Below, one piece after another: positions 1-64,000 of a DNA stretch of 64,000 bases. The notes beneath the pieces are model-generated. The model saw nothing but the letters and a program-made list of their open reading frames with translations, was not told where the DNA came from and ran no database searches. The stretch is taken from the IMG/VR virus record IMGVR_UViG_2887127144_000001, one strand, 5' to 3'. The stretch is from a virus (taxonomy: Duplodnaviria > Caudoviricetes). The position numbers and the translations under genes are program-made. The number at the start of each line of letters is the position of its first letter. The first letter of the stretch is position 1.

Positions 1-156
1 GGCATCCGACTGCTCCAATCAGGGAAGGTTAGGGATCGCCCTGGAGTCCTTCCATTCTACTTGATCCTTCGGCCGGATAAAGCGGGTGCTTGGGCTCGCC
101 CTTGTCCTCTACTTTCCGGTCCCACCCCGCTCATGTGGCCTTTGGACGGGGAAGCT

Positions 157-233
157 GAAGCCGCAGTCGGCCGGGTCAATCCTGCAGCGGGACCCTGCCC
201 CCTTCGGTTGACCCGGCCGCCTCTGGCGGCTTC
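157..233 (+). promoter_or_regulatory. Frpo/ssi-like hairpin promoter 1
   Basis: Perfect IR CGGCCGGGTCAA (168-179) / TTGACCCGGCCG (208-219) plus outer GAAGCCGC/GCGGCTTC; upstream of RBS AAGGAG and ATG 291. Confidence 0.6.
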
Positions 234-290
234 GGGGCGCTCCCGTAAGGCCCGATAGGCGGGCCGGAAACCGAAGAGAAGGAGAACACC

Positions 291-557
291 ATGTCCACCC
301 CCGCCCACAAACTCCGCGATGGCTGCCTGCAGGCCGTGATCTGGCGAAACCACGGCGAACGTGGCACCTACTACACGGTCAACGTGGCTCGCAGCTACCG
401 CCAGGGCGACGAAACCTGGAAGGAGACCGACTCGCTCAACGCCGACGACCTGCTGGCCATGGCCGAGCTGCTCCGCGAGGCTTATGCCTGGATCAAGACG
501 CAAAAGCGGGCCGACGCCAAAGGGCTGCGGGAACGCGATGGCGTGACTGCGAAGTAG
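291..557 (+). CDS. Small conserved mobile-element protein, possibly ssDNA-binding (PC4-like)
   Basis: 88 aa ORF with AAGGAG RBS; pattern AVIWRN...YYTV...RSY...WKETDSL..DDLL; fold assignment is inference. Confidence 0.7.
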   Translation: MSTPAHKLRDGCLQAVIWRNHGERGTYYTVNVARSYRQGDETWKETDSLNADDLLAMAELLREAYAWIKTQKRADAKGLRERDGVTAK

Positions 558-4245: not shown

Positions 4246-4300
4246 CGGTTGAATGCGCGCGGCATTCAACCAGACCTTTTCAACGAAGGAGACCACTACC

Positions 4301-5110
4301 ATGACCACCACCCTCGCGACCCTCTCCAACGAGCAGCTCCGCCGCTCCGCCCCTTCCATCTTCGCCTCCACCCCTTGGCATCGCATGAGCGACCGCTACC
4401 GCTTCGTGCCGACGATCGAGGTCGTGGACATGCTGCGCGACCGGGGGTTCATGCCCGTCCGCGCCCAGCAGAGCCGATCCCGCATCGAGGGCAAGGGCGA
4501 CTTCACCAAGCACCTGATCCGCTTCCGCCACGATAGCCTGCTCGACTCGCCCCGCGTAGGCGAGGAGATCCCGGAGCTCGTGCTGGTCAACAGCCACGAC
4601 GGAACCTCGTCGTATCAACTCATGGCGGGGATTTTCCGCCTGGTCTGCTCGAACGGCCTGGTCGTCCAGTCGGCCGACTTCGGCAGCATCCGGGTTCACC
4701 ACTCCGGCGGCTCCGATTTCCACCAGCGGGTGATCGACGCCACCTACCAGATCGTGGAGGAGGCACCCCGCACGATGGCCGCCATCGAGGAATGGAAGGG
4801 GATCACCCTGACCCGCCCGCAGCAGCTGGCCCTCGCGGACGCCGCCATGGAGATCAAGCCGAACGCCAGCATCCGCCCCGCTCACCTGCTGACTGCCCGG
4901 CGGAGCGAGGACTACACCGACCAGGATGGCCGCCGAGACCTCTGGCGCACGACGAACGTCTTGCAGGAGAATCTCCTCCGGGGTGGCCTGGCCGGGCACA
5001 ACGCGAACGGACGCCGGGTCCGCACCCGCCCCATCAAGAGCGTGTCGGAGGACGTGCGTGTGAACCGTGCCCTCTGGAGGCTGGCCGAGAGGATGGCCGA
5101 GCTGGTTTGA
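4301..5110 (+). CDS. DUF932/DUF945 family plasmid protein
   Basis: APSIFA..S.RY.FVPT, FTKHLIRFR, LVNSHDGTSSYQLMAGIFRLVCSNGL, QENLLRGG motifs. Confidence 0.92.
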   Translation: MTTTLATLSNEQLRRSAPSIFASTPWHRMSDRYRFVPTIEVVDMLRDRGFMPVRAQQSRSRIEGKGDFTKHLIRFRHDSLLDSPRVGEEIPELVLVNSHDGTSSYQLMAGIFRLVCSNGLVVQSADFGSIRVHHSGGSDFHQRVIDATYQIVEEAPRTMAAIEEWKGITLTRPQQLALADAAMEIKPNASIRPAHLLTARRSEDYTDQDGRRDLWRTTNVLQENLLRGGLAGHNANGRRVRTRPIKSVSEDVRVNRALWRLAERMAELV

Positions 5111-5860: not shown

Positions 5861-6346
5861 GTGGATACCATCGAATATTACACCCAAGATAAAACCCAGT
5901 GGGGACGCGGCGATTGGGAAAGCGAACCCGACAAAAAGCAGTGGCTGGACCAGGCCACAGGCTACCCTTGCCTGATCGTTCGAGGACCTCTCGGCGCGCT
6001 CTGCGGCTACGTCGGCGTCTCGAAGGACCACCCACATTTCGGTAAGGACTACGAGGTTCCGAACGTCGAGGTTCACGGTGGCCTGACCTTCGCCGGAGCC
6101 TGCCAGCCAAATGCCGACGAAGCCCGCCACATCTGCCATAAAGTGGATGGCGAGGACCATGTCTGGTGGTTCGGCTTTGACTGTGCCCACTACCGGGACT
6201 ATGTGCCGGGGATGAGGTCGATCCGCCGCGAGGCTGAAATGGTTGATCCCTTTGGGGGCTTCGAGAGATACAGGAACCTCGCCTATGTGACCGGAGAGGT
6301 CGAGTCGCTCGCCCAGCAACTCAAGTCGCTGGCGGTCGCCGCATGA
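5861..6346 (+). CDS. Conserved phage hypothetical protein
   Basis: GALCGYVGV...VEVHGGLTF...WWFGFDCAH motif typical of phage accessory genes; AAGGAGG RBS. Confidence 0.8.
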   Translation: MDTIEYYTQDKTQWGRGDWESEPDKKQWLDQATGYPCLIVRGPLGALCGYVGVSKDHPHFGKDYEVPNVEVHGGLTFAGACQPNADEARHICHKVDGEDHVWWFGFDCAHYRDYVPGMRSIRREAEMVDPFGGFERYRNLAYVTGEVESLAQQLKSLAVAA

Positions 6347-6531
6347 CCCCCGAGGAACTCAAGCCCATCGTCGCAGCGTGGGGCGGGCCGGAGAAGTTCG
6401 CCAAGCTGATCGACGTGAAGGAGCGAACCGTTAAGGCATGGCTATACGGGGAGCGCGGCATCAAGCCGCCCGTCGCCAAGCTGATACGGAGCCTGAAACT
6501 ACCGAAACCAAGGAAGGAACTCAGTGAATGA
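6343..6531 (+). CDS. Small HTH DNA-binding protein
   Basis: EKFAKLIDVKERTVKAWLYGERGI. Confidence 0.7.
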   Translation: MTPEELKPIVAAWGGPEKFAKLIDVKERTVKAWLYGERGIKPPVAKLIRSLKLPKPRKELSE

Positions 6532-6893
6532 GCGACATAGTTATCAAAGGCGACGCCATCGAAGCCATCATGGCAGCAGCAGCGATCAAAGTGTTCAAGG
6601 ACAAAATCGAAGGCTGGCAAACGCCGCTTGGACCGATCATTGAGGACGCCTTCAAGCTTCACTCCGAAGCCATTCGCAAGGCGGTTTACACGGCAACAGC
6701 AGAGTGCGTCAACTCGCCAGACTTTGCCAAGCAGCTTGTCCACCAGCTCAACCACAAGCTGGCGAACTTGGTGATCAATAAATGTAGCGGATTGGTAGAA
6801 AAGTCCTTCAACAACTTGATGAGAGATGAGGTTCTGAGAACCCGGCTGCAAACCGCAGTGATCGAGATCATCGAAAAGGAATCGGGTGCATGA
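6528..6893 (+). CDS. Hypothetical protein
   Basis: 121 aa coupled ORF (ATGA overlaps). Confidence 0.65.
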   Translation: MSDIVIKGDAIEAIMAAAAIKVFKDKIEGWQTPLGPIIEDAFKLHSEAIRKAVYTATAECVNSPDFAKQLVHQLNHKLANLVINKCSGLVEKSFNNLMRDEVLRTRLQTAVIEIIEKESGA

Positions 6894-7132
6894 ACACCGA
6901 GGCAACCCTCTGGCAGCCGATCGAGACCGCGCCCAAGACCGCCCTGAAGCGGATCGACCTGCTCGACGCCGGCAAGCGCCGCGTGCCCGACTGCTACTGG
7001 TCTCGGCATCACCAGAAATGGCGCTCGAAGCACTTCGACCAGTACGGGCAGCGGCTGAAGATCCGCCGCCCCACGCACTGGATGTTCGTGCCGAAGCCGC
7101 CGAAGGCCGAGACGGCAGCGGGGATCCTGTGA
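6890..7132 (+). CDS. DUF551-like phage protein
   Basis: WQPIETAPK...PTHWM..P.PP motifs. Confidence 0.8.
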   Translation: MNTEATLWQPIETAPKTALKRIDLLDAGKRRVPDCYWSRHHQKWRSKHFDQYGQRLKIRRPTHWMFVPKPPKAETAAGIL

Positions 7133-7296
7133 TCTGCCACGTCTGCGAAGGCTCCGGCTGCCACATGCTTATCCGCAACTGGAAGCCGGAATACTGGCCG
7201 TGCCCCTGCTGCCGGTACGCGGGCGTGACGGTGATGTACGGCCCGGCAACCATTGGACGAGCGAGGCTCGTAAGAACGCAACAGAAGGAGAGATAG
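7129..7296 (+). CDS. Small Cys-rich (zinc-finger-like) protein
   Basis: CHVCEGSGC...CPCC; GTGA overlap. Confidence 0.5.
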   Translation: MICHVCEGSGCHMLIRNWKPEYWPCPCCRYAGVTVMYGPATIGRARLVRTQQKER

Positions 7297-7299
7297 ACC

Positions 7300-7719
7300 A
7301 TGGAAGGAAAGAAACAAGATGTCGGGCTGACCGCCCCCACTTTTCAAGAGCGAGTTGGAGCCTGGATGGACGCCTGCTTCGGGCCCGTGATCTCCGCCGA
7401 CAAGGTGGAGAGGAACCACCGCTTCCTTGAGGAAGCTCTGGAACTGGTTCAAGCCTGCGGAGCTACGCGCGAGGAGTGCCTGCAACTCGTGGACTATGTT
7501 TTCGGACGCCCGGTCGGCGAGCCGAAGCAGGAGTCGGGCGGGGTCTCCGTCACGCACGCCGCCCTCTGTCTGGCAAACGGCATCGAAGTGCACGAGGCGG
7601 CAGAAGTCGAGCTTAGCCGGGTCTGGACGAAGATCGAGCAGATCCGGGCGAAGCAGGCGGCAAAGCCGAGGGGCTCGGTGCTCCCGATCTCGCCGAGCTA
7701 CAGCGGCGCGGAAGGGTGA
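7300..7719 (+). CDS. MazG-like nucleotide pyrophosphohydrolase-fold phage protein
   Basis: FQERV..W...CFG...RFLEEALELVQA...QESGGV. Confidence 0.6.
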   Translation: MEGKKQDVGLTAPTFQERVGAWMDACFGPVISADKVERNHRFLEEALELVQACGATREECLQLVDYVFGRPVGEPKQESGGVSVTHAALCLANGIEVHEAAEVELSRVWTKIEQIRAKQAAKPRGSVLPISPSYSGAEG

Positions 7720-7726
7720 GGCGGTC

Positions 7727-8251
7727 ATGGGATGGGGAGATTGCGGCACCGACAGCAAGGGAAGGCCGATCGGCTACGTTCACGCGGCGACTTGCGACCA
7801 TCCCGGATGCGACGCGAAGATCGACCGGGGACTGGCTTACGCTTGCGGCGGAATGCACGGGACTGGCGAAGGCGGCTGCGAGGGGTACTTCTGCGAGAAG
7901 CACCGCTACCATGTCGAGGACCCGTTCGGTTGGGTCGGCAGGCAGGAGGGCTTCGCTGTGCTGTGCGAGGCCTGCAAAAATGAACACAACGCCTACCTCG
8001 TCGAAGACCTGATCGAGGAACTGAAAGAACTTCGCGAGGGTCAGATCATGGCGCCCACCGACGCCCAACTCGCACGCCTGCGCGAGACGCTCCGCCCGAC
8101 CATCGAGGAATGGGCTCGCGACTACGGCCTGCCGATGGGCAAAGAGCACGCCCAGCTCGAGAACCGTCTGGTGGCCGCGCTGCTTGCAATGCACGAGAGC
8201 GGGACGATAACGATTAACAGCAAGGCCGAGGGGCCGGAAGGAAGAGTATGA
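7727..8251 (+). CDS. Cys/His-rich hypothetical phage protein
   Basis: CDHPGC..IDRGLAYACGG.H...C.GYFCEKH. Confidence 0.7.
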   Translation: MGWGDCGTDSKGRPIGYVHAATCDHPGCDAKIDRGLAYACGGMHGTGEGGCEGYFCEKHRYHVEDPFGWVGRQEGFAVLCEACKNEHNAYLVEDLIEELKELREGQIMAPTDAQLARLRETLRPTIEEWARDYGLPMGKEHAQLENRLVAALLAMHESGTITINSKAEGPEGRV

Positions 8252-8344
8252 GAATAGGATTTGTGGAAGGATTATGGGTGGGTATGGCAGCGACGCTAAT
8301 CCTGCTGATTTTGGTCGCAAAGACTTCGATGTGGATTTTGGATG
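8248..8344 (+). CDS. ~32 aa hydrophobic micro-protein
   Basis: MRIGFVEGLWVGMAATLILLILVAKTSMWILG; AAGGA RBS; ATGA overlap. Confidence 0.45.
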
Positions 8345-8417
8345 ATGCGTGTGCCCGCCAAGGTTGGAAGGGCGAGTCCTGCCAGTGCCGGAAGCTCGAA
8401 AAGGCGAAGGTGCAGCC

Positions 8418-8771
8418 ATGACCGCCCCCGACCTCCCCGCCCGCCTCGGTGCCGTTATCCGGCAGCGGCGCGTCCTGCTCGGGCTCTCGCAGCCCGCCCT
8501 CGCCAAGCGGGTCGGGGTGACCTTCCAGCAGGTCCAGAAGTACGAGAAGGGCACGAACCAGCCGACGTTTTGCCGCCTGGTCGACCTGGCGAACGCCCTC
8601 GGCACCACCGTAGGCGACCTGGCCGCGTCCGCCCTGCGTGGGGATGCCGGGGCCCAGGACGGACTTTCCGACCGCGAGACGCTGGAGCTGATGAAGTGGC
8701 TCGCCAGCCTCAGCCCGAACCAGCGGCGGGCCGTGCGGCAGCTGGTGGACGTCATGGCGGGGGCTGCGTGA
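8418..8771 (+). CDS. XRE-family HTH transcriptional regulator
   Basis: RQRRVLLGLSQPALAKRVGVTFQQVQKYEKGTN. Confidence 0.88.
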   Translation: MTAPDLPARLGAVIRQRRVLLGLSQPALAKRVGVTFQQVQKYEKGTNQPTFCRLVDLANALGTTVGDLAASALRGDAGAQDGLSDRETLELMKWLASLSPNQRRAVRQLVDVMAGAA

Positions 8772-8983
8772 ACGCCGGGCAGAACGACCCCCTCATGCCG
8801 GAGAACGAGCTGGTCGCCAAGGCCAAGCTCGACATCCGGGACGGCCGCATCCATTACCGTCTCTACCAGCAGGACGGAACCATGCAGCCGATGGACTGCC
8901 CCGATACGCCGAGCAACCGGCTATGCGTGTCCTGGATTCAGGCACACGACCGCTACACGCCAGGCGGTGCAAATGCGGCGTAA
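8768..8983 (+). CDS. Hypothetical protein
   Basis: GTGA-coupled ORF. Confidence 0.55.
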   Translation: MNAGQNDPLMPENELVAKAKLDIRDGRIHYRLYQQDGTMQPMDCPDTPSNRLCVSWIQAHDRYTPGGANAA

Positions 8984-9019
8984 ACGATTAATCAAAGGGC
9001 TGAGGCCCGAAGGAGGAGT

Positions 9020-9175
9020 ATGGAAGAGAAGAAGGTTTTGCCGTTGAACGAACTGCTCGACACGCTGAGCGAGAAGCAAGCCACGTTCATCCTCAACGCT
9101 TTGGTGACCGCTGGTTATGTGAGCCGTGAGCTGCTGGAAGACGCGATCAAGCTGTCGCGCTGGGTCAAGCCATGA
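9020..9175 (+). CDS. 51 aa hypothetical protein
   Basis: AAGGAGGAG RBS; MEEKKVLPLNELL...; ATGA overlap with next gene. Confidence 0.55.
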   Translation: MEEKKVLPLNELLDTLSEKQATFILNALVTAGYVSRELLEDAIKLSRWVKP

Positions 9176-9699
9176 CCGCGGCCCCGAGCATGTCGCTCCT
9201 GAAGCGAGCTGCAGACCGCCTGATTCGGCCCTTCTACCGGGATCCAGACTTTTACATCGGCGGCAAGGAGGACCCGTACCTGCTCCGCTGGTGGGTCATC
9301 CCACGGAACCGCTTCTTCAACATCTACCTGCACAAGTTCCTGCGGGACGACGACGACCGCGCGCTTCATGACCATCCCTGGGTCAGCCTGAGCATCATCC
9401 TGAAGGGCGGGTACATCGAGCACACCGCAACCGAAGTTCGGCGACGCTATGCAGGCAGCATTGTCTTCCGAAGGGCGAAGCACGCCCACCGGATTGAGCT
9501 GCTCCGCAATCATCGCTGCCCGGTCGTGCCACCTGGCGACGAGCCCGCCTACTTCCGGCTAAAGCCCGCCTGGACGTTGTTCGTCACCGGTCCCCGCATC
9601 CGCGAATGGGGCTTCCACTGCCCGCAAGGCTGGCGGCATTGGCGAGAGTTCACCAGCCCGGTTGATAGCGGGAACGTCGGGAAGGGCTGCGAGCCATGA
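9172..9699 (+). CDS. Cupin-like phage protein
   Basis: NIYLH.F...D.DRALHDHPW...GGY.E...HRIEL...WTLF.TGP. Confidence 0.8.
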   Translation: MTAAPSMSLLKRAADRLIRPFYRDPDFYIGGKEDPYLLRWWVIPRNRFFNIYLHKFLRDDDDRALHDHPWVSLSIILKGGYIEHTATEVRRRYAGSIVFRRAKHAHRIELLRNHRCPVVPPGDEPAYFRLKPAWTLFVTGPRIREWGFHCPQGWRHWREFTSPVDSGNVGKGCEP

Positions 9700-9977
9700 C
9701 GCCCTATGAACTGCGACTGGCCTGCGAGGAGCGAATCCAGCAGTGGGAGCGCGACAACTGGGCAGCCGCTGAGTATCCTCACATCTACCTCACGCTGCCC
9801 TGGCTGGCGACTGGCGAGAACACCCGTCTGGCAAAGACGAAGGGCCCCATGTCGGAGTTCATCGCCAACGTAGTCGCAGGCCGTGGCACCACGGCTGCGT
9901 TCGATGCCCGCAAGGTGCTGGCTTACCTCGAACGCCATGCTGCTCCCCCTCCGCCCTCAGCCCCGCACGGCCTTTGA
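9696..9977 (+). CDS. Hypothetical protein
   Basis: 93 aa coupled ORF. Confidence 0.55.
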   Translation: MTPYELRLACEERIQQWERDNWAAAEYPHIYLTLPWLATGENTRLAKTKGPMSEFIANVVAGRGTTAAFDARKVLAYLERHAAPPPPSAPHGL

Positions 9978-9989
9978 TGTGGTGATGCT

Positions 9990-10086
9990 GAGGCCGGAGC
10001 CATGCCGGGGCAAGGAAAAAAGACCGCTTTCCGCAAGCGGAAGCCTTCGGCTTTTTGTCCTTGCACGGCACAGCGCCACCGGCCTC
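9990..10086 (+). promoter_or_regulatory. Frpo/ssi-like hairpin promoter 3
   Basis: Nested IRs GAGGCCGG/CCGGCCTC, TGCCG/CGGCA and GCAAGGA/TCCTTGC with internal hairpins. Confidence 0.55.
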
Positions 10087-10144
10087 GGGCGCACACACAG
10101 AAAGGCCCGATGAGCGGGCAAGAATCAGAGAAAGGAAGCTCGTT

Positions 10145-14840: not shown

Positions 14841-14928
14841 GAAGGGGCATCCATTCGGCAGTAGGGCGAGGCATCGAGCAAGCTCGTGCCTTCCCTACTA
14901 CCTCAACCATTAACAGAAAGGGAATCTC

Positions 14929-48022: not shown

Positions 48023-48035
48023 CCGTCAACGATTT

Positions 48036-54217: not shown

Positions 54218-55129
54218 ATGCGGCGCGAACCCTACGACGAGGCTTACAAGGCTGAGATCGTCAGGAGGGTTCTGGCAGGAGAAACCGCCGAGGCCATCAG
54301 TCGCCAGCCAGGGTCACCGAGAGGTGCAACCATCCGCGAGTGGGTTGTCAAGGCGAAGCATAAGGAGGCCCTCAAGGCCACAGTACGTCAGCACGTCGAG
54401 CCGAGGCCTGTCGTCCTGGCCCCCACCATCGAAGCCCACCGCCCGCGCCGGGTGCTCGTCATCCCCGACATGCACCATCCCTTCTGCCACCCCGACGCGC
54501 TGGAGTTCCTGAAGGCTGTACGCGATGCGTACAAGTGCGATTCCGTGGTGTGCCTCGGGGACGAGGTGGACTGGCACGCGCTCTCGCGCTACGACCACGA
54601 CCCGGACGGCTTATCACCCGGGGGAGAGTTGGAGGCGGCGCTGGTCAGCATCGCCCCGTTCTACACCGCCTTCCCCGACGTGCTGGTATGCACCTCGAAC
54701 CACACCGTGCGCGGCCACCGCAAGGCGTACTCCGCCGGCATCCCCGCCGCGTTCCTCAAGCACATCAGCATGGTGCTGCACGCTCCCGACGGCTGGGAGT
54801 GGAGGGATGAGCACCGCATCGACGGCGTGTCCTACATCCACGGCGACGCTGGGCGCTCCGGCCAGTACGCCCACATCCACTACATGAAGCAGGCCAAGCG
54901 CTCAGTGGTCATCGGGCACATTCATGCCTTTGCCGGAGTGGCATTTGAAGGACAGCACTTCGGCATGAACACGGGCTGCCTTATCGACTCGGAGGCCTAC
55001 GCCTTCGCCTATGGAAGAAAGAACCTGCTCCCCGTATCCCTCGGGTGTGGCGTGGTCATCGAGGGAAGGGAGGCGCATTTCATCCCGATGCACCTGGACG
55101 ACAACAAACGATGGACAGGAAAGTTATGA
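54218..55129 (+). CDS. Calcineurin-like metallophosphoesterase with N-terminal HTH
   Basis: IPDMH, LGDEVD, SNH, HGD, GHIH. Confidence 0.9.
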   Translation: MRREPYDEAYKAEIVRRVLAGETAEAISRQPGSPRGATIREWVVKAKHKEALKATVRQHVEPRPVVLAPTIEAHRPRRVLVIPDMHHPFCHPDALEFLKAVRDAYKCDSVVCLGDEVDWHALSRYDHDPDGLSPGGELEAALVSIAPFYTAFPDVLVCTSNHTVRGHRKAYSAGIPAAFLKHISMVLHAPDGWEWRDEHRIDGVSYIHGDAGRSGQYAHIHYMKQAKRSVVIGHIHAFAGVAFEGQHFGMNTGCLIDSEAYAFAYGRKNLLPVSLGCGVVIEGREAHFIPMHLDDNKRWTGKL

Positions 55130-55398
55130 AGGCAGAGGAGATCGCCCGCAGGGCGGCGGATCTGGTCGGGGGCGACCGAGCCAGGCAGCACGGCGACAAG
55201 CACGAGACGCACCGCAACATCGCCCGACTGTGGAGCGCGTGGCTGCGCCATCCCGTTTCGGCGGCTGACGTGGCGGCCATGATGGTGCTGCTGAAACTGG
55301 CCCGCACCAAGGGCGGAAGCCTCAACACGGACAATTTCGTGGATATGGCGGGCTACGCCAGCATCATGGGAGAACTCGCCGATGGAGCCGACTCGTAA
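55126..55398 (+). CDS. DUF6378-like phage protein
   Basis: GDRA.QHGD...NIA.LWSA.L...DVA.MM.LLK.AR...D.FVD.AGY. Confidence 0.85.
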   Translation: MKAEEIARRAADLVGGDRARQHGDKHETHRNIARLWSAWLRHPVSAADVAAMMVLLKLARTKGGSLNTDNFVDMAGYASIMGELADGADS

Positions 55399-55505
55399 TG
55401 CTGTTCTCGAAAGACTGGCTCTTCTGCTTGAGCGGGAGTGCCGCCTGGCTGGCGTGGATATTGAGCCGGAAACGACGAAAATCATCGAAAAGCTGAAGAG
55501 GAACC

Positions 55506-56162
55506 ATGAAGGTATCGGATCGCGGGATCGCACTGATTAAAGACCACGAAGGGTTGCGGCTGGAGGCGTACCTATGCCCCGGCAACGTCTGGACAATCGG
55601 CTACGGCTCCACCAAAGGCGTGAAGCAAGGCATGAAGGTGACCAAGAAACAGGCCGAGGAAATGCTGCGTCGCGATATTGGCAGGTTCGAGCGGGCGGTG
55701 AACAAGTTGGTCACCATGGAATTGTCGCAGGAGCAGTTCGACGCGCTGGTGTCGCTCGCCTTTAACATCGGCGAAGGCGCGTTTGCAAAGTCCAAGCTAT
55801 TGGAGGTTCTAAACGCGGGGAAATATCGCGACGCAGCCGCGCAGTTCCCGAAGTGGCGCAAGTCGGCGGGCAAAGTGCTGCCTGGCTTGGTCAAGCGCCG
55901 CGCCGCCGAGAAAGCCCTGTTCCTCGAAGGCACCGCCCCCGAGCCCTTGAAGCCGCTCACCAAGAGCCGTGAACTGATCGGCAGCACCGTGGCTGCGGTC
56001 GGCACTGCGGGCGACGTCGCCCTCTCCGAGGCCAAGGACGCGATCGAGCCGGTCATCGGCTACTCGGAAACCCTTCGCTGGCTTTTCATCGCCCTCGTAT
56101 TCGTCGGCCTCGGCCTGACCATCTATGGGCGGCTCAGCAACCGGAGGAAGGGCATTGTTTAA
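55506..56162 (+). CDS. GH24 lysozyme endolysin with C-terminal membrane segment
   Basis: EGLRLEAYLCP..VWTIGYGST, QFDALVS..FNIG, LPGLVKRR.AE. Confidence 0.95.
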   Translation: MKVSDRGIALIKDHEGLRLEAYLCPGNVWTIGYGSTKGVKQGMKVTKKQAEEMLRRDIGRFERAVNKLVTMELSQEQFDALVSLAFNIGEGAFAKSKLLEVLNAGKYRDAAAQFPKWRKSAGKVLPGLVKRRAAEKALFLEGTAPEPLKPLTKSRELIGSTVAAVGTAGDVALSEAKDAIEPVIGYSETLRWLFIALVFVGLGLTIYGRLSNRRKGIV

Positions 56163-56379
56163 CGCGAAACTGATTGCCATCCTCGCGCTGTTGTGCATAG
56201 CTGCGGGGGGTGGGCTTTACTGGAAGGGCTACTTCAGCGGCAAGGCGACCTACGAGCAGCAGCAGGTGAAGAAAACGAATGAGATCAAGAGGAAACATGC
56301 GAAGGTCAAGCGCGACGCTCCTGGCGACACTGATAAGCAGCCTGTCATTGAGTGGCTGCGGCAACGCACCCGTCAGTGA
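56155..56379 (+). CDS. Inner-membrane spanin (Rz-like)
   Basis: N-terminal TM plus helical domain; overlapped by a lipoprotein ORF. Confidence 0.7.
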   Translation: MFNAKLIAILALLCIAAGGGLYWKGYFSGKATYEQQQVKKTNEIKRKHAKVKRDAPGDTDKQPVIEWLRQRTRQ

Positions 56380-57096: not shown

Positions 57097-57432
57097 CTAC
57101 GCAACCTTGGCGATGGTCCTACCTTCGTCGTTGCAGATGTATGCGAAGCACTCTACGGCAAGGCGATGCCACTGCCCGTCCTTCTCATAATCCACGAAGC
57201 GTACTCGCACGCCCTCGGGGCCTCCGGTAGAGCGATTATCGATCGATTCATCGAATGTATGTACAGCTGAGGGAGATAGACCCGTGGTGCGAAATACGCC
57301 GGGTCCCTTCGTCAGCGTGTCGTGCAATTCTCTGTCCGAAACAAATTGAAACCCGCTTTCGTGGATCTCCACGTCGGTCACGTTCTGAATGATACGCTGG
57401 GTATTGCGGTTCGTCATAACTTTTATAAGCAT
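57097..57432 (-). CDS. Hypothetical protein (low GC)
   Basis: AAGGA RBS; AYICND.GRTI C-terminal motif. Confidence 0.7.
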   Translation of the reverse strand: MLIKVMTNRNTQRIIQNVTDVEIHESGFQFVSDRELHDTLTKGPGVFRTTGLSPSAVHTFDESIDNRSTGGPEGVRVRFVDYEKDGQWHRLAVECFAYICNDEGRTIAKVA

Positions 57433-57769
57433 ATTTATAGTCCTTCTATTAATGCTAATGACATTGTCGCCTCAATGATGCGACTTGCAAATAGTGAATC
57501 AGACGCCGCCTTAGGTCAAGCGCACGATCGCTGTAGTCGCTTCTATTTCCGGTTGGCTCCCCGCCGCGGGCATGCTACACCTTGTCGGGCCGAATCCCAG
57601 CCGACCGCCCAGCATGTCCTTCGCCAGCCGCTTCTCCTCCAAAGATCGCCCCGACTCATTCGTGGAACGTGTCAGGCCGTCTCGCGGCCAGGGGCTTTTC
57701 TCGTTCTCCGAACCCCCTCCCCATACCGTGCACGGCCCGCCAGGGCCTTCCTCCGCGACCGTACCTCCC

Positions 57770-57830
57770 CAGCCGTCCGCTTCAAGCTGCAATGGGTCCC
57801 CTCCCATTTCGCTTGACCCGGCCGTTGCTG
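57770..57830 (+). promoter_or_regulatory. Frpo/ssi-like hairpin promoter 5
   Basis: TCAAGC/GCTTGA and AATGGG/CCCATT IRs; TTGACCCGGCCG identical to 208-219. Confidence 0.5.
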
Positions 57831-57895
57831 AGTCGGTTGATCGCTCCGACGTCAGGCCCCCGCTCGCGGGGCCTTCAACGTCTCAAGGAGGTTCC

Positions 57896-60800
57896 ATGGA
57901 CAATCCCCTCTCATCAGGCGAGAAAGCCAAAGCCCGCGACATCCTCGCCGCCATCCGCACGCTCAAGACCGTCGAACGCGAGCAGCGTCCCCCCACCGAC
58001 GACGAGATGCAGGCCCTCCGCCGATTCGGCGGCTTCGGGGCGGTGGCCCTCTCCATCTTCTCCGATCCCGTCACTGGCCAGTTCAAGGACGGCTGGCGCG
58101 AGATCGGCGAGGAGCTCCGCTCGCTCCTGACCCCCGAGGAATACGACTCCGCCAAGCGGACGACCTTCTCCCAGTTCTTCACCTCCCCCGTCGTCATGCG
58201 GGCCATGCACGACGCCCTTTCGCGTTTGGGCGTTCCTACCACCGCGACCGTGCTCGAGCCGGGATGCGGGACCGGCAATTTCATGGCTCACGCTCCCGCA
58301 GGTCAGCGGTTCATCGGCGTCGAGCTCGACTCCCTCACCGGCCGCATTGCCCGCGAGCTGCATCCCTCGGCAGATATCCGCATCGAAAACTTCCGCGACT
58401 CGAAGCTCCCTCCTCTCGACGCCGTGATCGGCAACGTCCCCTTCGCCAACGTCCACCTCGACTTCCACGGCCGGAAGCTCTCCCTCCACGACTTCTGCAT
58501 CGCCAAGTCGGTCGAGGCCCTGAAGCCCGGCGGCGTCCTCGCCGTGGTCACCAGCCACTTCACCCTCGACAAGCAGAACGCCGCCGTCCGCGAACTGCTC
58601 GCCTCGCAGGCCGACTTCCTCGGGGCCATCCGCCTGCCGAATGACGCCTTCAAGCGGGAGGGCACGGCGGTCACCACGGACATCCTGTTCCTGCGTAAGC
58701 GGGCCCCCGGCCAGGCGCCGAACCACGCGGACCCGGAATGGCTGGAAACCTCCGAGATCGGCATCGCCGGGGCCGACCTGCCGGTCAACCGCTACTTCCT
58801 GAACCACGACGAGATGGTCCTCGGCGACTGGAGTCGCGAGCACCTGCTCCACGGGGCGGTCGGGTTCAGCGTGAAGTCGAACGGCGACCTGGCCAGCCAG
58901 CTCAAGGAGGCCATCGCCCGGTTGCCGCAGGTGAAGCAGTCCGAGGCGGAGCGGCCGAATCCGCCTCCGGCCGTTCTACTAGACCCCGAAAAACGAGTAG
59001 ATGTAGTAGAAGTCCAAGTAGAAAAACCAGCCTTCGTCCCGCCCCCGCCGCTCCGGCATATCACCGAAGGCTCCCTGTTCGTCGGCGACGACAAGGTCAT
59101 CCGCCAGGTCGAGAACGGAACTGCCGAGCCCGTCACCTACTGCGGCGTCCTCCTCAGGTCCGACGGCACGCCCCAGGCCCGAAAGATCGGCTCGCTCATC
59201 GGGCTGCGCGACCTCGCCCGCCGCGTGCTCCAGTCCCAGAACGAGGGCTGGCCCGAGGCGAACCGCCAGGAGGCACGCCGGGCGCTCAACGCGGCCTACG
59301 ACCGATTCGTGGCCCAGTACGGCCCGGTCAATAAGACCACGTTCACGGAGACCAAGAACGGCACCATCCGCCGCATGCCCAACCTGGTGAAGTTCCGGGA
59401 GGACCCGGACGCCATGCTCGTCATGAGCCTCGAGGAGTACGACGAGGCGACCGGCAAGGCGGAGAAGGCCGCTATCATGAAGCGGGACGTGGTCGGCCCG
59501 AAGCCGCCCGTCACGCACGTCGCCTCCGCGGAGGAAGGGCTGCTGGTCTCGCTGAACGAGCGAGGGGCCGTCGACCTGCCGTTCATCGCCTTGCTCTACG
59601 GGAAGCCCGAGGAGGCCGTCGTCGCCGAGCTTGGCGACCTGATCTTCAAAAACCCTGAGACCGGGAAGTTCGAAGTCGCCGACGACTACCTCTCGGGGAA
59701 CGTCCGCCACAAGCTCGCCGTCGCCGAGAAGGCAGGGCCGGGGTATGCCCGGAACGTCGAGGCCCTGCGCTCAGTCCAGCCCGAGGACGTGCTACCCGGC
59801 GACATCGACGCGAACCTGGGCGCCCCATGGATCCCCGAGAAGGACATCAAGGCGTTCGCTGAGGAGCTCTTCGGCGGCTCGTTCACCGTCGGACACCTGA
59901 AGAAGGATGCCGTCTGGAGCCTGGAGCCCGACTACCGGGCCATCCAGTCGGTCGCGGCCACCGCCGACTTCGGGACCGGCCGGATCAACGGCACGGAGCT
60001 GCTCGCCCAGGCCTTGAACCTGAAATCACCGGTCATCTACGACACGATCCGCGGCGTCAACGGCGACGAGCGGGTCCTGAACCCGACCGAGACGCAGGCC
60101 GCCAAGGAGAAGCAGAAGCTCATCAAGGAGCGGTTCAAGTCGTGGATCTTCGCCGACCCCGACCGCACCGAGCGGCTGGTGAGGATCTACAACGACACCT
60201 ACAACAACATCCGGCCACGGCTGTTCGATGGCAGCCATCTAGATTTTCCGGGGATGAGCAGGGCGATCACGCTCAAGCCCCATCAGGTCGACGCGGTCTG
60301 GCGGTGCATGACGGCGGGGAACACGCTGCTCGCGCACGCCGTCGGAGCGGGCAAGGCCCAGCCACTCGACGCGAAAGTCCTGACACCAACTGGCTGGGTG
60401 CGGATGGGCAACCTCCGGCCGGGGGATAAGGTAATCGCGGGCGATGGCACCGTGACGCAGGTCACTGGAGTTTTCCCGCAAGGTGAGAAGGCAATCTGGC
60501 GGGTTGCCTTCTCCGATGGCTCATCTACGCGAGCATGCGGAGAGCATCTCTGGCTGACCCAGACGAGTGCGGAACGGCAGCGATGGAATGAGGCGAAGCG
60601 CGAAGGGCATGTCACCGTCAAGGGGCAACCCAAAGTCAGAACTACGGAGGAGCTAGCCCGAACTATTCACGAACGGCACTACGTGCCGCTGACCGGCCCG
60701 GTTGAATTCACTGCCGTTGAGTTGCCACTCGACCCATACACCCTCGGCGTGCTCATCGGCGACGCATCCTTCCGCCAGTTCTCGGTCCAACTGGCAGTCC

Positions 60801-63800
60801 CCGAGTCCGTTCAACTCGATTACCTCGCGCTGCCCGCTGGCGTGACGGCGAAGACCTGGTCGAAGCCGGGGAAGTGTCCCGTCGCGTGGATGGTCGCGGG
60901 CGGCGTCAGGCCGAACCCGCTCAACAAGATCATCCGTGAGCTTGGGCTGTGGAACTTGAAGAGCCGCGACAAGTTCATCCCTAACGACTACCTCTACGCC
61001 TCCCCGGCCGACCGCCTGGGGATGATCCAGGGCCTGATGGATGCCGACGGTGGGGTGGTGGGGCGGACGGCCCGGTACACCAGCTACTCGGAGAGATTGG
61101 CCGACGGAATGGTCGCGCTGGTGAGGAGCTTGGGCGGCATCCCGCACAAGCGCATCATGGAAGGCGCTGCGCCAGGAAGCGTCAAATTCACCGTAGACGT
61201 AAAGCTGCCTGATGGAATGGTTCCATTTCGGCTGAAGCGAAAGGTGCTAGCCTGGAAGGGGTCCACAATAAATCGCCGCACCCCGAAGCGGTGCATCGTC
61301 TCTATATCCCCTGACGGGGTCGCACCCTCCCAGTGTATCGCAGTAGCCCACCCGTCGCGCCTCTACATCACGGATGATTTCATCGTCACCCACAACACCT
61401 ACGAGATGTGCGCCGCCGGAATGAAGATGAAGCAGGCTGGCATCATTAAAAAACCGATGTACTGCATCGCGAACAACATGCTGGAGCAGTTCGCTCGCGA
61501 ATTCCTCCAGTTATATCCTGATGCCAAGCTTCTCGTCGCGACCAAGGAGGATTTCACGCGAGAAAAGCGAAAACTCCTGACGGCTCGGATCGCTTCAGGA
61601 GACTGGGATGGCATCATCACCACTCATTCGAGCTTCGAGCGGATTGGTATGTCGCGTGAGTTCCAAGAGCGGTTCCTGCGCGATCAGATCAAAGAATACG
61701 AAGATCTCCTGATTGACAAGGCCACGCTGGGCCGGAACATCACGAAGACGCTAGAAAAGCAAAAAGTGGCGAGGGAAGAAAAGCTCAAAGCTCTTCTGGC
61801 TGAGGACAAGAAGGACAGTGGTTTGGTCTTCGATGAGTTGGGGATTGACCACCTGTTCGTAGACGAGTCGGCGATGAGTTTCAAAAACCTCGAAACTCCC
61901 ACCAAGATGGAGCGTGTCGCAGGCATCCAGACCAGCGGCTCCGAACGGGCCTTTGATCTGTACATGAAGTGCCGCTACCTCGACGAACGCCACCCTGGCC
62001 ACGGCGTCACGTTCGCCACAGGCACGCCGATCACGAATACCATGGTCGAGATGTACACCAACCAGCGGTTCCTCGACCCCGAGGGGCTCCGCTCGCGCGG
62101 CATCGAGCACTTCGACGCTTGGGCCGCCACGTTCGGCGAGGTTGTGGACTCCATGGAGATCTCGCCCGACGGTGCATCGCTCCGGCCCCGCAGCCGCTTC
62201 GCGAAGTTCGTGAACCTGCCCGAGCTGGTCCAGATGTTCCGCGCCTTCGCCGACGTGCAGACGGCGGAGATGCTGGACCTGCCCCGGCCGAAGCTTGAAG
62301 GCGGGAAGCCCCAGACCATGGCCTGCCCCATGTCCGAGGAGCAGAAGGGTTTGCAGGCGGGGCTCATCAAGCGGTACGACCGCATCCGCAACGAGAAGGT
62401 CGATCCACGCGAGGACAACGCCCTGGCGATCACCACGGACGGCCGCAAGCTGGCCCTCGACGGCCGGATGCTCGGGACCGGGGGCGACTTCCCGGAGTCG
62501 AAGATCAACGCCCTGGTCAGGAACGTGGCCCGGATCTGGAACGCGACCGCCGAGAAACGCGGCACGCAGATGGTCTTCTGCGACATGGGCGTGAACGCAA
62601 ACCCGTTCTCGGCCTACGACGAGATCGTGGAGAAGTTGGTCGACCACGGCATCCCACGGGCCCAGATCGCCGTGATCGGCGATGCCGACACCGACGCGAA
62701 GAAGCAGGCACTGTTCGAGAAGGTCCGTCAGGGCACCGTTCGCGTGCTCCTGGGCTCGACGTCCAAGATGGGCACGGGCACCAACGTCCAGAAGCGACTG
62801 GTGGCCCTCCATCACCTCGACGCCCCCTGGAAGCCCGCCGAGGTCGAGCAGCGAGACGGCCGCATCCTCCGTCAGGGCAATGAGAACTCCGAGGTGGCCA
62901 TCTACCGATACGTCACCGAGGGTTCGTTCGACGCCTACATGTGGCAGGCGTTGGAGACCAAGGCCCGATTCATCGCCCAGGTGATGAGCGGCGACTGCGC
63001 GGTCAGGAAGGCCGAGGACATCGGCGGCCAGGAGCTGAGCTATGCCGAGGTGAAGGCCATCGCCTCGGGCAACCCGGCCGTGCTGACGCTGGCCGAGGCC
63101 GACGCCGAGCTCCAGCGGCTGGCTATTCTGCGGAAGAACCACCTGGACGAGCAGTACCGCGCAAGGCAGTCGGTCAGGGACCTCCCCGACGACATCCGGC
63201 GGCTGGAGAAGCGGCTGGAGGGCTTGGAGGCCGACAAGGCGACACTCGCGAAGAGCGAGGCTGTTCCGTCGCAGGAGGCAGTCGCCGATCGCATGAAGCG
63301 GATGCCGGAGAAGGTGAGCGAGACCTACCGCACCCCGCTCGGGCGATACCGCGGACTGGAGGCCAGCCTGATCCTGCACCCGCTCGGCGGGACGGAGGTC
63401 GTGCTGGACGGGGCGACCCGACGCCGGGAGACGCTGCTGCGGGACAACCCCGGCCCGCGTGCCGTGCTGAACGCGCTGGAACGGCTGGCGAACAGCTATG
63501 ACTACGATTGCCGGAGCCACCGGGCGGAGATCGGTGTGAGGCAGGGCCAGCTCAAGGACTACGAGGCCCGCCTCGGAAAACCGTTCGAACATGCCGACTA
63601 CATGAGCCAGCTGGCGGGCCTTCGCGACCTGCTCAAGGCCGGCCTCTCGGAGAACCCACCCGAGGGCATCCCTCCCGCCGGCGAGGTGGCCGAGAAGATC
63701 AAGGCGTTGCGGGAGGCGAACACCGTCGAGGCCGCCCCCGAGCGTGCGGTGAGGAAGGCCGCAAGGGCCGAGAGGCCGGTGACAGCCCGGCTCAGGGAAA

Positions 63801-64000
63801 AGCTGGCCGAGCAGCAGGCGGCCGAGGTGCCAGCTTCGGTCGAGGCCAACCCGGAGCCGGACGCAGCCCAGCCCGAGCCTGTTCAGGCGCCAGAGCACGT
63901 GGTCGTCCCCATGCCGGACCGGGTGAGGCTGACGAACGGCCACGCCAAGGCGGTGGTCAGCCGCCGCCAGGCGAAGGCGGAGCAGTTGAGACTGTTCTGA
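57896..64000 (+). CDS. DarB-like N6-adenine methyltransferase / SF2 (SNF2-related) helicase, intein-containing
   Basis: VLEPGCGTGNF, IGNVPF, YLSGNV..KL, LGAPWIP, AHAVGAGK/T, FATGTP, MGTGTNVQ, EQRDGRI.RQGN; AAGGAGG RBS. Confidence 0.95.
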   Translation: MDNPLSSGEKAKARDILAAIRTLKTVEREQRPPTDDEMQALRRFGGFGAVALSIFSDPVTGQFKDGWREIGEELRSLLTPEEYDSAKRTTFSQFFTSPVVMRAMHDALSRLGVPTTATVLEPGCGTGNFMAHAPAGQRFIGVELDSLTGRIARELHPSADIRIENFRDSKLPPLDAVIGNVPFANVHLDFHGRKLSLHDFCIAKSVEALKPGGVLAVVTSHFTLDKQNAAVRELLASQADFLGAIRLPNDAFKREGTAVTTDILFLRKRAPGQAPNHADPEWLETSEIGIAGADLPVNRYFLNHDEMVLGDWSREHLLHGAVGFSVKSNGDLASQLKEAIARLPQVKQSEAERPNPPPAVLLDPEKRVDVVEVQVEKPAFVPPPPLRHITEGSLFVGDDKVIRQVENGTAEPVTYCGVLLRSDGTPQARKIGSLIGLRDLARRVLQSQNEGWPEANRQEARRALNAAYDRFVAQYGPVNKTTFTETKNGTIRRMPNLVKFREDPDAMLVMSLEEYDEATGKAEKAAIMKRDVVGPKPPVTHVASAEEGLLVSLNERGAVDLPFIALLYGKPEEAVVAELGDLIFKNPETGKFEVADDYLSGNVRHKLAVAEKAGPGYARNVEALRSVQPEDVLPGDIDANLGAPWIPEKDIKAFAEELFGGSFTVGHLKKDAVWSLEPDYRAIQSVAATADFGTGRINGTELLAQALNLKSPVIYDTIRGVNGDERVLNPTETQAAKEKQKLIKERFKSWIFADPDRTERLVRIYNDTYNNIRPRLFDGSHLDFPGMSRAITLKPHQVDAVWRCMTAGNTLLAHAVGAGKAQPLDAKVLTPTGWVRMGNLRPGDKVIAGDGTVTQVTGVFPQGEKAIWRVAFSDGSSTRACGEHLWLTQTSAERQRWNEAKREGHVTVKGQPKVRTTEELARTIHERHYVPLTGPVEFTAVELPLDPYTLGVLIGDASFRQFSVQLAVPESVQLDYLALPAGVTAKTWSKPGKCPVAWMVAGGVRPNPLNKIIRELGLWNLKSRDKFIPNDYLYASPADRLGMIQGLMDADGGVVGRTARYTSYSERLADGMVALVRSLGGIPHKRIMEGAAPGSVKFTVDVKLPDGMVPFRLKRKVLAWKGSTINRRTPKRCIVSISPDGVAPSQCIAVAHPSRLYITDDFIVTHNTYEMCAAGMKMKQAGIIKKPMYCIANNMLEQFAREFLQLYPDAKLLVATKEDFTREKRKLLTARIASGDWDGIITTHSSFERIGMSREFQERFLRDQIKEYEDLLIDKATLGRNITKTLEKQKVAREEKLKALLAEDKKDSGLVFDELGIDHLFVDESAMSFKNLETPTKMERVAGIQTSGSERAFDLYMKCRYLDERHPGHGVTFATGTPITNTMVEMYTNQRFLDPEGLRSRGIEHFDAWAATFGEVVDSMEISPDGASLRPRSRFAKFVNLPELVQMFRAFADVQTAEMLDLPRPKLEGGKPQTMACPMSEEQKGLQAGLIKRYDRIRNEKVDPREDNALAITTDGRKLALDGRMLGTGGDFPESKINALVRNVARIWNATAEKRGTQMVFCDMGVNANPFSAYDEIVEKLVDHGIPRAQIAVIGDADTDAKKQALFEKVRQGTVRVLLGSTSKMGTGTNVQKRLVALHHLDAPWKPAEVEQRDGRILRQGNENSEVAIYRYVTEGSFDAYMWQALETKARFIAQVMSGDCAVRKAEDIGGQELSYAEVKAIASGNPAVLTLAEADAELQRLAILRKNHLDEQYRARQSVRDLPDDIRRLEKRLEGLEADKATLAKSEAVPSQEAVADRMKRMPEKVSETYRTPLGRYRGLEASLILHPLGGTEVVLDGATRRRETLLRDNPGPRAVLNALERLANSYDYDCRSHRAEIGVRQGQLKDYEARLGKPFEHADYMSQLAGLRDLLKAGLSENPPEGIPPAGEVAEKIKALREANTVEAAPERAVRKAARAERPVTARLREKLAEQQAAEVPASVEANPEPDAAQPEPVQAPEHVVVPMPDRVRLTNGHAKAVVSRRQAKAEQLRLF
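60356..61396 (+). mobile_element. Class 3 intein with LAGLIDADG homing endonuclease (347 aa)
   Basis: GAGK|AQPLDAKVLTP...EHLW...LGVLIGDA...GLMDADG...QCIAV...VTHN|T. Confidence 0.93.

Follow-up and report, generated by a model that had tools for sequence, protein, structure and literature searches.

The 64,000-nucleotide stretch of DNA analysed here (the window; IMG/VR virus record IMGVR_UViG_2887127144_000001) corresponds to positions 10968-74967 of contig C1, a 258,013-base chromosomal contig of a 7.07-Mb genome (G000; 80 contigs, ~64% G+C, 97.8% complete). The window is likely to lie wholly inside a single integrated element of at least 95.7 kb, belonging to a conserved lineage of temperate, tailed-phage-like elements in which a MOBF relaxase is a fixed part of the early region, accompanied in this sub-lineage by a VirD4-type coupling protein. 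From one end to the other, the element would consist of an attachment site (att), a tyrosine integrase gene, an AlpA-type gene, the genes for the coupling protein, a ParB-like protein and DNA methylases, entry-type genes for a conserved 88-amino-acid protein (p88) and a DUF932 protein, the relaxase gene, a replication module, a virion and lysis module, a DarB-like gene, tRNA genes with cargo genes, and the second att. The analysis established this architecture, the ends of the element, the absence of an inner recombinase, and the conservation of the layout, with module swapping, across diverged genomes. An initial annotation of the window had proposed one composite unit rather than an ordinary prophage insertion, and this proposal was borne out by the att repeats flanking the whole element, the lack of an inner recombinase, and the gene order kept in relatives. 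The same annotation had described one replicon and had asked whether the contig closes shortly beyond position 64000; that part was not supported: the contig is chromosomal and does not close there, and the element is integrated between att repeats.

Ends of the element and its host

The exact 22-mer TGCAATTCCCGCCGCCTCCACT occurred just twice in the G000 genome, at C66:4157-4178 and at C1:91496-91517. The left copy, on contig C66, falls within the final codons of an intact gene for a tyrosine integrase (C66:2735-4229), which matched PF00589 at 1.7e-15, was also found by tblastn, and has 80% identity to the integrase adjoining AlpA in the sister genome G004. In the chromosome of Tundrisphaera lichenicola P12, the same 22-bp direct repeat lies beside the 3' end of the integrase gene, with a second copy 117 kb away. 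The core genome begins at C1:91,994, ~17 kb beyond the end of the window, with a gene for 1425 amino acids that has 82-89% nucleotide identity in all four same-genus genomes. The two repeats thus enclose at least 95.7 kb (4,178 + 91,517 bases, the gap between C66 and C1 left out). The start of C66 would adjoin the start of C1 over a short gap, a join that we infer because homologues of the genes at C66:530-2660 sit at the corresponding end of two IMG/VR proviruses (G041 and G042), of the element in a genome from another genus (G021), and of the Tundrisphaera element. On the right, the att core lies inside a diverged remnant of an integrase 3' end of ~375 bp (L002:16383-16906, equivalent to C1:91.35-91.87 kb), which is nearer to the integrase of G004 than to the element's own. 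Because the att core sits in this remnant, the arrangement suggests that an older, now decayed element probably once filled the same site and that the present one was inserted beside it.

Recombinases were sought across the contig and within the window, where genes were called with an open reading frame (ORF) picker based on G+C content at third codon positions (GC3) and then scanned against Pfam and PHROGs. None of the 16 genome matches to the tyrosine recombinase family PF00589 and none of the six genome matches to the serine recombinase family PF00239 lay on C1, and the Pfam and PHROG scans of the window genes revealed no inner recombinase or transposase. The supposed phage junctions, at 14.5-18.5 kb and 55-57.7 kb, had no common word longer than 13 nt. 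The statement in the initial annotation that no integrase or att is visible at the junctions therefore holds for the window and for the supposed junctions, and it does not hold for the element, whose integrase and att repeats lie outside the window. A Mu-like transposable phage, suggested by a GemA match at 14929-15249, was considered and rejected: the match was below the Pfam cut-off (20.8 versus 27 bits), and a transposase was not found.

The complete chromosome of T. lichenicola P12 (Isosphaeraceae), a cultured strain, carries the element's closest named relative. On the basis of this relative, of the best plasmid matches of the relaxase, which were plasmids of Isosphaeraceae and other planctomycetes, and of a prepilin-type protein that flanks the element in the sister genome (read by eye), the host is assigned to the planctomycetes, in or near the Isosphaeraceae. 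We take the prepilin-type protein to be of a kind typical of this phylum.

Conserved layout and exchanged virion modules

An arrangement of relaxase, replication module, virion module, and DarB-like gene, in this order, recurred at 30-94% protein identity in the T. lichenicola chromosome, in the proviruses G041 and G042, and in other genomes of the family. Collinearity with the Tundrisphaera element runs from AlpA to the DarB-like gene and covers the entire window, with identities of 82% for the integrase, 49% for the coupling protein, 70% for ParB, 70% for the relaxase, 82% for the primase-polymerase, 82% for the portal, and 62% for the capsid protein; the "plasmid" and "phage" halves showed no difference in identity in this comparison. 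G042 (51 kb, 67% G+C) has p88, the relaxase, and the genes from terS to the tail arranged alike, with identities of 29-77%. In G097 and in two copies in G076, the order is relaxase, replication genes, terL, portal, protease, capsid, DarB-like gene. Relatives with mobF as well as the genes for capsid and packaging, for which the initial annotation had proposed a search, thus exist in G042, Tundrisphaera, G097, and G076, and in the same order. G021 is collinear from C1:944 to window position ~19.4-19.8 kb, including the relaxase and the 15-19 kb region, where its contig ends; nothing further of the rest of the window was found in this genome, which is only 79% complete.

The 143-kb provirus G041 is collinear with the window from -10.6 to +69 kb at 70-90% nucleotide identity, and the match takes in the coupling protein, the relaxase at 87% protein identity, the entire replication module, the fibre-like genes at 38.8-43.1 kb, and the DarB-like gene. 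It has no counterpart of the window at 27.7-38.8 kb and 43.1-56.8 kb; after the primase-polymerase gene and before the common fibre genes, G041 instead carries a 26-kb myovirus block with portal, tail sheath, tape measure, and baseplate genes. The replication module at 20.5-27.7 kb is common to both despite the different virion type of G041. Virion modules have been exchanged at one position, as in ordinary phage mosaicism.

These comparisons also bear on the possibility that phage and plasmid contigs were joined artificially during assembly. Every junction was spanned by collinear homology in independent assemblies, one of them a complete chromosome, so that the continuity at the junctions questioned in the initial annotation was upheld, and no relative was found in which only the 15-57 kb part lies between att ends. 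We therefore regard a chimeric assembly as excluded by the homology and give it practically no weight.

The virion module was described initially as an intact siphovirus gene set at 15.4-56.8 kb. From terS to the lysozyme gene, the set does look intact; the remainder of that interval does not belong to it, because the 15.4-20 kb stretch is not virion DNA and 20.5-27.7 kb is the replication module. The 15.4-20 kb stretch was co-inherited with the relaxase in G021 and G041. The element combines the intact terminase, portal, capsid, tail, and lysis genes of a temperate tailed phage with an integrase and att sites that bound the unit (the left join being the inferred one). The capsid protein (439 amino acids) has the capsid of the Rhodobacter gene transfer agent as its closest solved structure (E 1e-62), and the region ahead of the fold comprises ~140-155 residues, a length presumably nearer to that of T5 than to that of HK97, which we treat only as a hint. 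The capsid match, together with an element size that may exceed the capacity of the head, would suit a mobilisable element whose virion genes are no longer infectious and serve as a transfer-agent-like or tailocin-like device for packaging pieces of DNA. This is improbable: terS, terL, a full replication module, the integrase, and the lysis gene are present and intact, unlike in a Rhodobacter-type gene transfer agent, to which the likeness is limited to the capsid protein, and the multiple copies in G076 look selfish rather than host domesticated. Within the module, terL (30726-32141) has been replaced independently of its neighbours; the terL of G097 is 70% identical, and Tundrisphaera and G042 keep terS and portal, with no match covering at least half of the window terL at E 1e-6.

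Linkage of virion and relaxase genes was surveyed in a family sample of 81 genomes, G000 included. TrwC relaxases (PF08751) were found in 35 of these genomes, with up to six per genome, and coupling proteins (PF02534) in 29. At E <=1e-20, the window capsid protein matched eight places in five genomes, and the tail sheath of G041 matched eight loci in four genomes. For all seven capsid places with at least 50% identity, a TrwC match was located on the same contig at a distance of 16-25 kb. The remaining place, with 33% identity, belongs to a genome in 1,290 contigs, and its own contig had no TrwC match. Every one of the eight sheath loci had a TrwC match 21-29 kb away. In the union of the two queries, 10 loci in six genomes, all 10 were linked to TrwC (16-29 kb). 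With at most six TrwC genes per genome of 5-10 Mb, chance linkage within 30 kb was estimated at no more than ~5% per locus, and independent support for the linkage comes from about eight genomes, G041 and G042 counted. In G076, a complete-looking genome, five virion-linked copies were seen, four with a short relaxase and one with a full-length relaxase and a split coupling-protein gene, in addition to one virion-less relaxase locus.

A maximum-likelihood tree was built from 32 relaxase domains, 20 of them additional rows chosen, not randomly, from 70 TrwC places; "other" in this tree means that neither virion query (capsid or sheath) matched nearby. The window relaxase fell in a well-supported clade (99/98), in which five of the six members are virion linked and the sixth is that of G021, where the contig ends before the virion position. 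When the tree labels were shuffled, ~10 switches between virion-linked and other relaxases were needed on average, and none of 500 shuffles was as low as the observed number.

Several points weigh against a single conserved phage-like lineage. That number was ~4, with starred branches forcing at least 3; therefore, the relaxase and virion modules have recombined several times and were not strictly co-inherited. Five of the 10 virion-linked loci are in G076, whose copies are paralogues, so that the loci are not independent, and 5 of the 10 carry a short relaxase domain with no clear coupling protein nearby. Within G000 itself, copies of the backbone at C8:128-159 kb and C24:4-27 kb hold genes for a coupling protein and ParB along with a DarB-like gene, p88, and a TrwC relaxase that has 35% identity to that of the window, without a homologue of either virion module; because these copies show no virion homologues, the backbone also exists without virion genes, and there the DarB-like gene lies between ParB and p88 instead of following a virion block. 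The element's left end falls on two contigs, the starts of C66 and C1 having no overlap. At 96-117 kb from att to att, the element is big for an HK97-type head with a protease and no separate scaffold gene. Finally, virion formation, excision, and transfer are predictions from the sequence.

Two of these points, the backbone copies on C8 and C24 and the several switches in the relaxase tree, would also suit a nested arrangement in which an independent prophage was inserted into an integrative mobilisable element, and nested and tandem structures that combine phages with integrative and conjugative elements (ICEs) have been described in the available text of PMC13651849. Such an arrangement (Phage::ICE type) is nevertheless very improbable: no second integrase, serine recombinase, or transposase was found on C1, no direct repeats of at least 14 nt join the supposed junctions, the whole element is enclosed by the att repeats, the replication module beside the virion genes recurs in G041 despite its other virion type, and the same order occurs in at least six diverged genomes with similar divergence in both halves. 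An accidental insertion of a prophage into an island is accordingly very unlikely.

In the preferred reading, that of one phage-like lineage with a built-in relaxase, the integration and replication functions would serve both the virion module and the relaxase, here together with the coupling protein. The integrase and AlpA would excise the whole unit, the primase-polymerase and helicases would replicate it, and TerS and TerL would load it into heads of the HK97 type that carry a siphovirus tail. The DarB-like protein may shield the incoming DNA, and the relaxase may nick at the nearby hairpin.

Relaxase, coupling protein and possible routes of transfer

The MOB-F relaxase named in the initial annotation was confirmed by its Pfam matches (Table 1). 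It aligned to the solved relaxase domains of F TraI and R388 TrwC, with the YY..YY and H..HxH positions matched. We take the paired tyrosines and the histidine triad to have the catalytic roles familiar from the TraI and TrwC literature, and the relaxase looks active. In a collection of 50,697 phage records, only one record, an unannotated faecal contig, matched the relaxase, and 20 records, mostly unannotated metagenomic contigs, matched the coupling protein at <=32% identity. The closest relaxases include ones encoded on small contigs and in plasmid records from the same bacterial family, and small planctomycete plasmids with kindred relaxases are likewise without a mating channel. The coupling protein of the element, which is absent from the initial annotation and encoded just upstream of the window, is intact and has 49-79% identity in Tundrisphaera and G041. 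In the family sample, a coupling protein was found within 35 kb only at loci with a full-length relaxase: those in G000, G064, and G081 and one copy in G076, whose coupling-protein gene is divided between two frames. The genes that encode the relaxase domain only, at five loci, are open frames of 340-363 amino acids; two extracted short relaxases of G076 (331 and 343 amino acids) keep the H..HxH motif. These domain-only loci weaken any conjugation reading for the loci concerned.

Searches with PF03135 (VirB4), PF12846 (AAA_10), and PF03743 (TrbI) gave no matches in the 97.8%-complete G000 genome, and VirB4 was found in none of the 81 family genomes, 34 of which are of high quality. The VirB4-type ATPase and channel that would characterise a self-transmissible ICE are thus missing from the genome and family profile searches; the integrase, att, and relaxase of an integrative mobilisable element, for which a coupling protein is optional, are all present. 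According to the available text of 10.1101/2024.01.22.576637, 29 MOBF relaxases occur in 21 planctomycete chromosomes, often with a coupling protein, and no complete mating-pair system was reported there for any planctomycete chromosome. Pairs of relaxase and coupling protein seem to function without a recognisable type IV secretion system across the family.

Five co-oriented hairpin promoters had also been proposed for the window. Four of six folded stretches (150-260, 9975-10095, 14740-14860, and 57760-57880) went well beyond their shuffles, and two did not (765-890, z -2.0; 57215-57340, z -0.9). The four strong hairpins are co-oriented, stand ahead of entry-type genes, and recall the single-strand promoters of plasmid leading regions as presented in the available text of PMC11541004; no -10 box at normal spacing was recognisable in the fold output, and a role as single-strand promoters is putative. 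The stretch at 150-260, upstream of p88, has a DNA fold of -32 kcal/mol (z -3.3). All eight p88-upstream regions examined in relatives folded to long hairpins with differing stem sequences (folded without a shuffle control), the consensus from MAFFT and RNAalifold was poor (-9.96 kcal/mol, inner stems unaligned), and the geometry in G076 differs. The 12-mer TTGACCCGGCCG, noted initially as shared by positions 208 and 57813, is exact at both and has an inverted copy at 168; allowing <=1 mismatch, six matches were found versus 0.6 expected, and none of 100 shuffles reached six. The inverted repeat in the gap beside the start of the relaxase gene is a candidate origin of transfer (oriT) or promoter hairpin, and no nic site was identifiable in it.

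Mobilisation by a helper type IV secretion system, as put forward in the initial annotation, was not supported by the searches for VirB4, AAA_10, and TrbI. A mobilisable phage, with a working virion route and a relaxase and oriT that would let such a helper transfer the element by conjugation, is consistent with the intact, full-length relaxase-helicase, with the coupling protein kept intact in Tundrisphaera and G041, with the frequency of both genes in the family, with the nearest relaxases on small contigs and plasmid records, and with hairpins like those of plasmid leading regions (available text of PMC11541004). It is unlikely in view of the channel genes missing from a nearly complete genome and, for VirB4, from the whole family sample, the lack of complete mating-pair systems in planctomycete chromosomes (10.1101/2024.01.22.576637, available text), the five virion-linked loci with a nuclease domain only and no coupling protein, and the hairpins without a recognisable -10 box.

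Two uses of the relaxase may be considered under the preferred reading of a phage-like lineage. A phage-internal use, in nick-primed rolling-circle replication or DNA processing, is a serious possibility, if somewhat short of an even chance; it fits because some virion-linked loci keep the nuclease domain alone, and the HUH initiators of phages P2 and phiX174 offer an analogy. Real single-strand export via the coupling protein and an unrecognised channel is only slightly less probable. The intact, conserved pair, the kinship to relaxases of small planctomycete plasmids, and the four hairpins before entry-type genes speak for a conjugation-type role; the channel genes not found in the genome or family and the nuclease-only loci speak against it. 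It is conceivable but doubtful that the lineage consists of true phage/conjugative hybrids, with the relaxase and coupling protein as working phage parts in a family without a recognisable type IV secretion system. In one possible version of such hybrids, there would be two exit routes, virions and relaxase-led single-stranded DNA passing through an unrecognised channel; in the other, the conjugative DNA-processing pair might have been rewired to feed replication or packaging of a phage genome of ~100 kb.

Further features and comparison with known systems

The coordinates of the features are collected in Table 1.

Table 1. Features of the element. Positions are those of the window unless a contig or locus is named.
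Feature	Position	Strand	Evidence or remarks
AlpA-type gene (excision regulator)	C1:83-379		very start of contig; read by eye
VirD4/TraG coupling protein	C1:3519-5351		5.6 kb upstream of window; PF02534 4.7e-80
Other upstream genes	C1		C5 DNA methylase, N6/N4 DNA methylase, ParB-like protein
Long imperfect hairpin upstream of p88 gene	156-234	+	3' arm with TTGACCCGGCCG; inverted copy at 168
p88, conserved 88-amino-acid protein	291-557	+	no Pfam match
Helix-turn-helix (HTH; Cro/C1-type) protein, 306 amino acids	3345-4265	-	HTH_26 4.6e-05, HTH_3 5.4e-05
DUF932 protein	4253-5110	+	PF06067 1.2e-42
Variable accessory block, small genes	5861-9977	+	phrog_2164 (unknown function), MazG-like, phrog_9476, phrog_4786
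Long hairpin	9975-10095	+	-35.7 kcal/mol, z -4.3; 0/200 shuffles as good
MOBF (TrwC-type) relaxase with superfamily 1 (SF1) helicase domain, 912 amino acids	11852-14590	-	PF08751 1.7e-60, AAA_30 5e-39
Inverted repeat, 12-nt perfect inner arms	14765-14840	+	gap beside relaxase start; fold -40.9 kcal/mol, z -4.1
Superfamily 2 (SF2) helicase (ResIII/Helicase_C)	20578-22263	-	real start near 22263, not 22905
DUF669 protein and AAA_24 ATPase	23525-24896	-	DUF669 9.5e-15, AAA_24 5e-44
Primase-polymerase	25576-27753	+	PriCT_2 and DUF3987 helicase-like domains
A+T-rich array	29263-29536		~7 direct and inverted copies of TGCGATTTAT; between replication and packaging genes
Packaging and head genes	30206-36822	+	terS, terL, portal, MuF, small ORFs, prohead protease, HK97-fold major capsid protein
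Starts in packaging and head module			terS 30206, terL 30726, portal 32142, MuF 33497, protease 34854, HK97 capsid 35503
Head-closure protein with long C-terminal extension and two large virion-associated proteins	38332-43118	+	phrog_25, phrog_10356
Siphovirus neck and tail	43081-53762	+	Neck1, tail terminator, major tail protein, chaperones, tape measure, distal tail, hub-region, J-like fibre, 406-amino-acid protein
Tail landmarks			neck, tail terminator, major tail protein 43081-44441; tape measure 45432 (576 amino acids); distal tail protein 47162
J-like fibre	49914-52541	+	875 amino acids
Lysis region	54218-56379	+	metallophosphoesterase, lysozyme, small downstream ORF; phrog_221
Lysozyme	55506 (start)		Phage_lysozyme 3e-50
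DarB-like giant helicase/putative methylase, 2142-amino-acid ORF	57572-64000	+	Pfam: Helicase_C and weak LAGLIDADG alone
Hairpin with TTGACCCGGCCG in 3' arm	57777-57824	+	just before conserved part of DarB-like gene; stretch 57760-57880 z -3.5
tRNA-Phe, tRNA-Tyr, tRNA-Met	L002:1273-1680 (C1:76240-76647)		1.3-1.7 kb past window end, inside element

The DarB-like ORF had been counted as part of a plasmid backbone. An ORF with such homologues is indeed present, and it is no marker of a plasmid backbone: homologues at 36-41% identity over ~70% of the length occur in 1008 phage records, and where these are annotated they read "DarB-like antirestriction" or "DNA methylase". Because so many phage records hold homologues, the DarB-like gene appears to be a phage gene as much as a plasmid gene. 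Its true start is probably near 57.9 kb, just after the hairpin at 57.78-57.82 kb, because the phage homologues align only from about residue 116. The gene is interrupted by an intein (residues ~927-1275, window ~60350-61394) that is similar to the gp41-1 intein in its N-terminal splicing region (E 3.5e-07) and gave a weak match to a LAGLIDADG endonuclease; the insert is missing from the C8 and C24 paralogues and from the G041 and Tundrisphaera homologues. A tRNA-Leu(CAA) called by ARAGORN at 59978-60047 on the minus strand lies inside this ORF, was unsupported by Rfam, and is probably a false call.

Genes of the replication module were strongly conserved in Tundrisphaera and G041, with identities of 72-78% for the SF2 helicase, 74-95% for the DUF669 and AAA_24 proteins, and 82-89% for the primase-polymerase, which has 71% identity in G097. 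The start of the helicase was placed near 22263 because the homology to G041 begins at M215. The A+T-rich array read initially as an iteron origin is real, and an origin is only one of three possible roles for the TGCGATTTAT copies, the others being a pac site or a late operator.

In the left arm, homologues of p88 with 55-87% identity were found by tblastn in G041, Tundrisphaera, G021 (two copies), G042, C24, and C8, and p88 is also present in G076, that is, in every related element examined. The DUF932 protein recognised in the initial annotation was verified (Table 1), with homologues at 53-56% identity in Tundrisphaera, G021, and G076, and the HTH protein has 70% identity in G021. The region at 5.9-10 kb, which had been called a second phage-type block, is not a virion module and holds only PHROG families of unknown or accessory function; it has hardly any counterpart in relatives. 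In the virion module, the head-closure domain (phrog_25) occupies residues 37-135 of the protein encoded at 38332-40131 and is fused to ~460 further residues. The proteins encoded at 38332-43118 have 62-75% identity in the myovirus-type G041, which has a head of another type and keeps only the part of the 38332-40131 protein that follows the head-closure domain.

Downstream of the window are genes for a Y-family polymerase, three tRNAs, a nuclease, and a series of defence-like proteins. The element-borne tRNA genes fit a large phage genome; a role as integration site was considered for them and rejected, as they lie inside the element and not at its end. The Tundrisphaera element carries tRNA-Met, tRNA-Arg, and tRNA-Leu. 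Cargo at the right end (L002:5432-16053; C1:80.4-91.0 kb) encodes NOV_C and HNH proteins, a PfkB-like kinase, an ORC/CDC6-like ATPase, and a HAD-like protein, and the HNH protein has 90% identity in the Tundrisphaera element.

Integrative mobilisable elements with a relaxase and their own coupling protein resemble this element in having an integrase and att and no mating-pair apparatus, and the copies on C8 and C24 resemble them. Such elements are not known to carry genes for a terminase, portal, capsid, or tail or for lysis. Tandem phage-ICE and nested Phage::ICE structures likewise place phage and conjugation-type genes together in a chromosomal island with the potential to move as one unit; 612 such loci are reported, and they are described as "rather than a hybrid element" in the available text (Huang et al., Sci Adv 2026, PMC13651849). 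According to that text, they are two accreted elements, each with its own integrase, whereas here one integrase and one att pair bound everything, the virion block is without a recombinase, the replication module is shared, a type IV secretion system was not found, and genomes of different genera keep the layout. Two separable elements, each equipped with a recombinase and an att pair, were thus not found in this case. The planctomycete chromosomal loci with MOBF and a coupling protein (10.1101/2024.01.22.576637) share the gene pair, the phylum, and the lack of a complete mating-pair system; in the available text on those loci, "phage" occurs only in "phage integrase" and in a filter pattern, and no link to a virion module is made.

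Phage-plasmids such as P1, which carries darB, also unite phage and plasmid-type gene sets, including a DarB-like gene, in one element, and their families are old and mosaic (PMC12282955, available text). They are described there as extrachromosomal replicons with partition systems, unlike this element, which is integrated between att repeats. Neither an extrachromosomal replicon nor a plasmid replication initiator with a partition system was found: in Pfam scans of the window and upstream genes, a ParB-like gene alone was seen, without ParA or Rep. The streptococcal "conjugative prophage" Phi1207.3 is a prophage reported to move by conjugal transfer; it differs in its Firmicute host and its size of 52.5 kb (PMC4260502, available text). 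Literature searches on planctomycete or Isosphaeraceae prophages with a relaxase, and on TrwC in the context of phage rolling-circle replication, found nothing on relaxase-bearing planctomycete prophages.

On these findings, a prophage lineage that extends across genera would have a relaxase as a conserved component, in part accompanied by a coupling protein, with the two halves of the element sharing one integrase and one replication module. They also pose a puzzle for the family, in which TrwC relaxases occur in 35 and coupling proteins in 29 of 81 genomes and VirB4 in none, pointing to an unrecognised DNA-export route or to another job for the pair. Planctomycete phages are hardly known; in a megablast search of the 24.5-kb virion module (29500-54000) against the 50,697 phage records, a single 47-base match was obtained. 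A full copy of the element is present in a cultured strain with a complete genome, T. lichenicola P12, which makes these possibilities testable.

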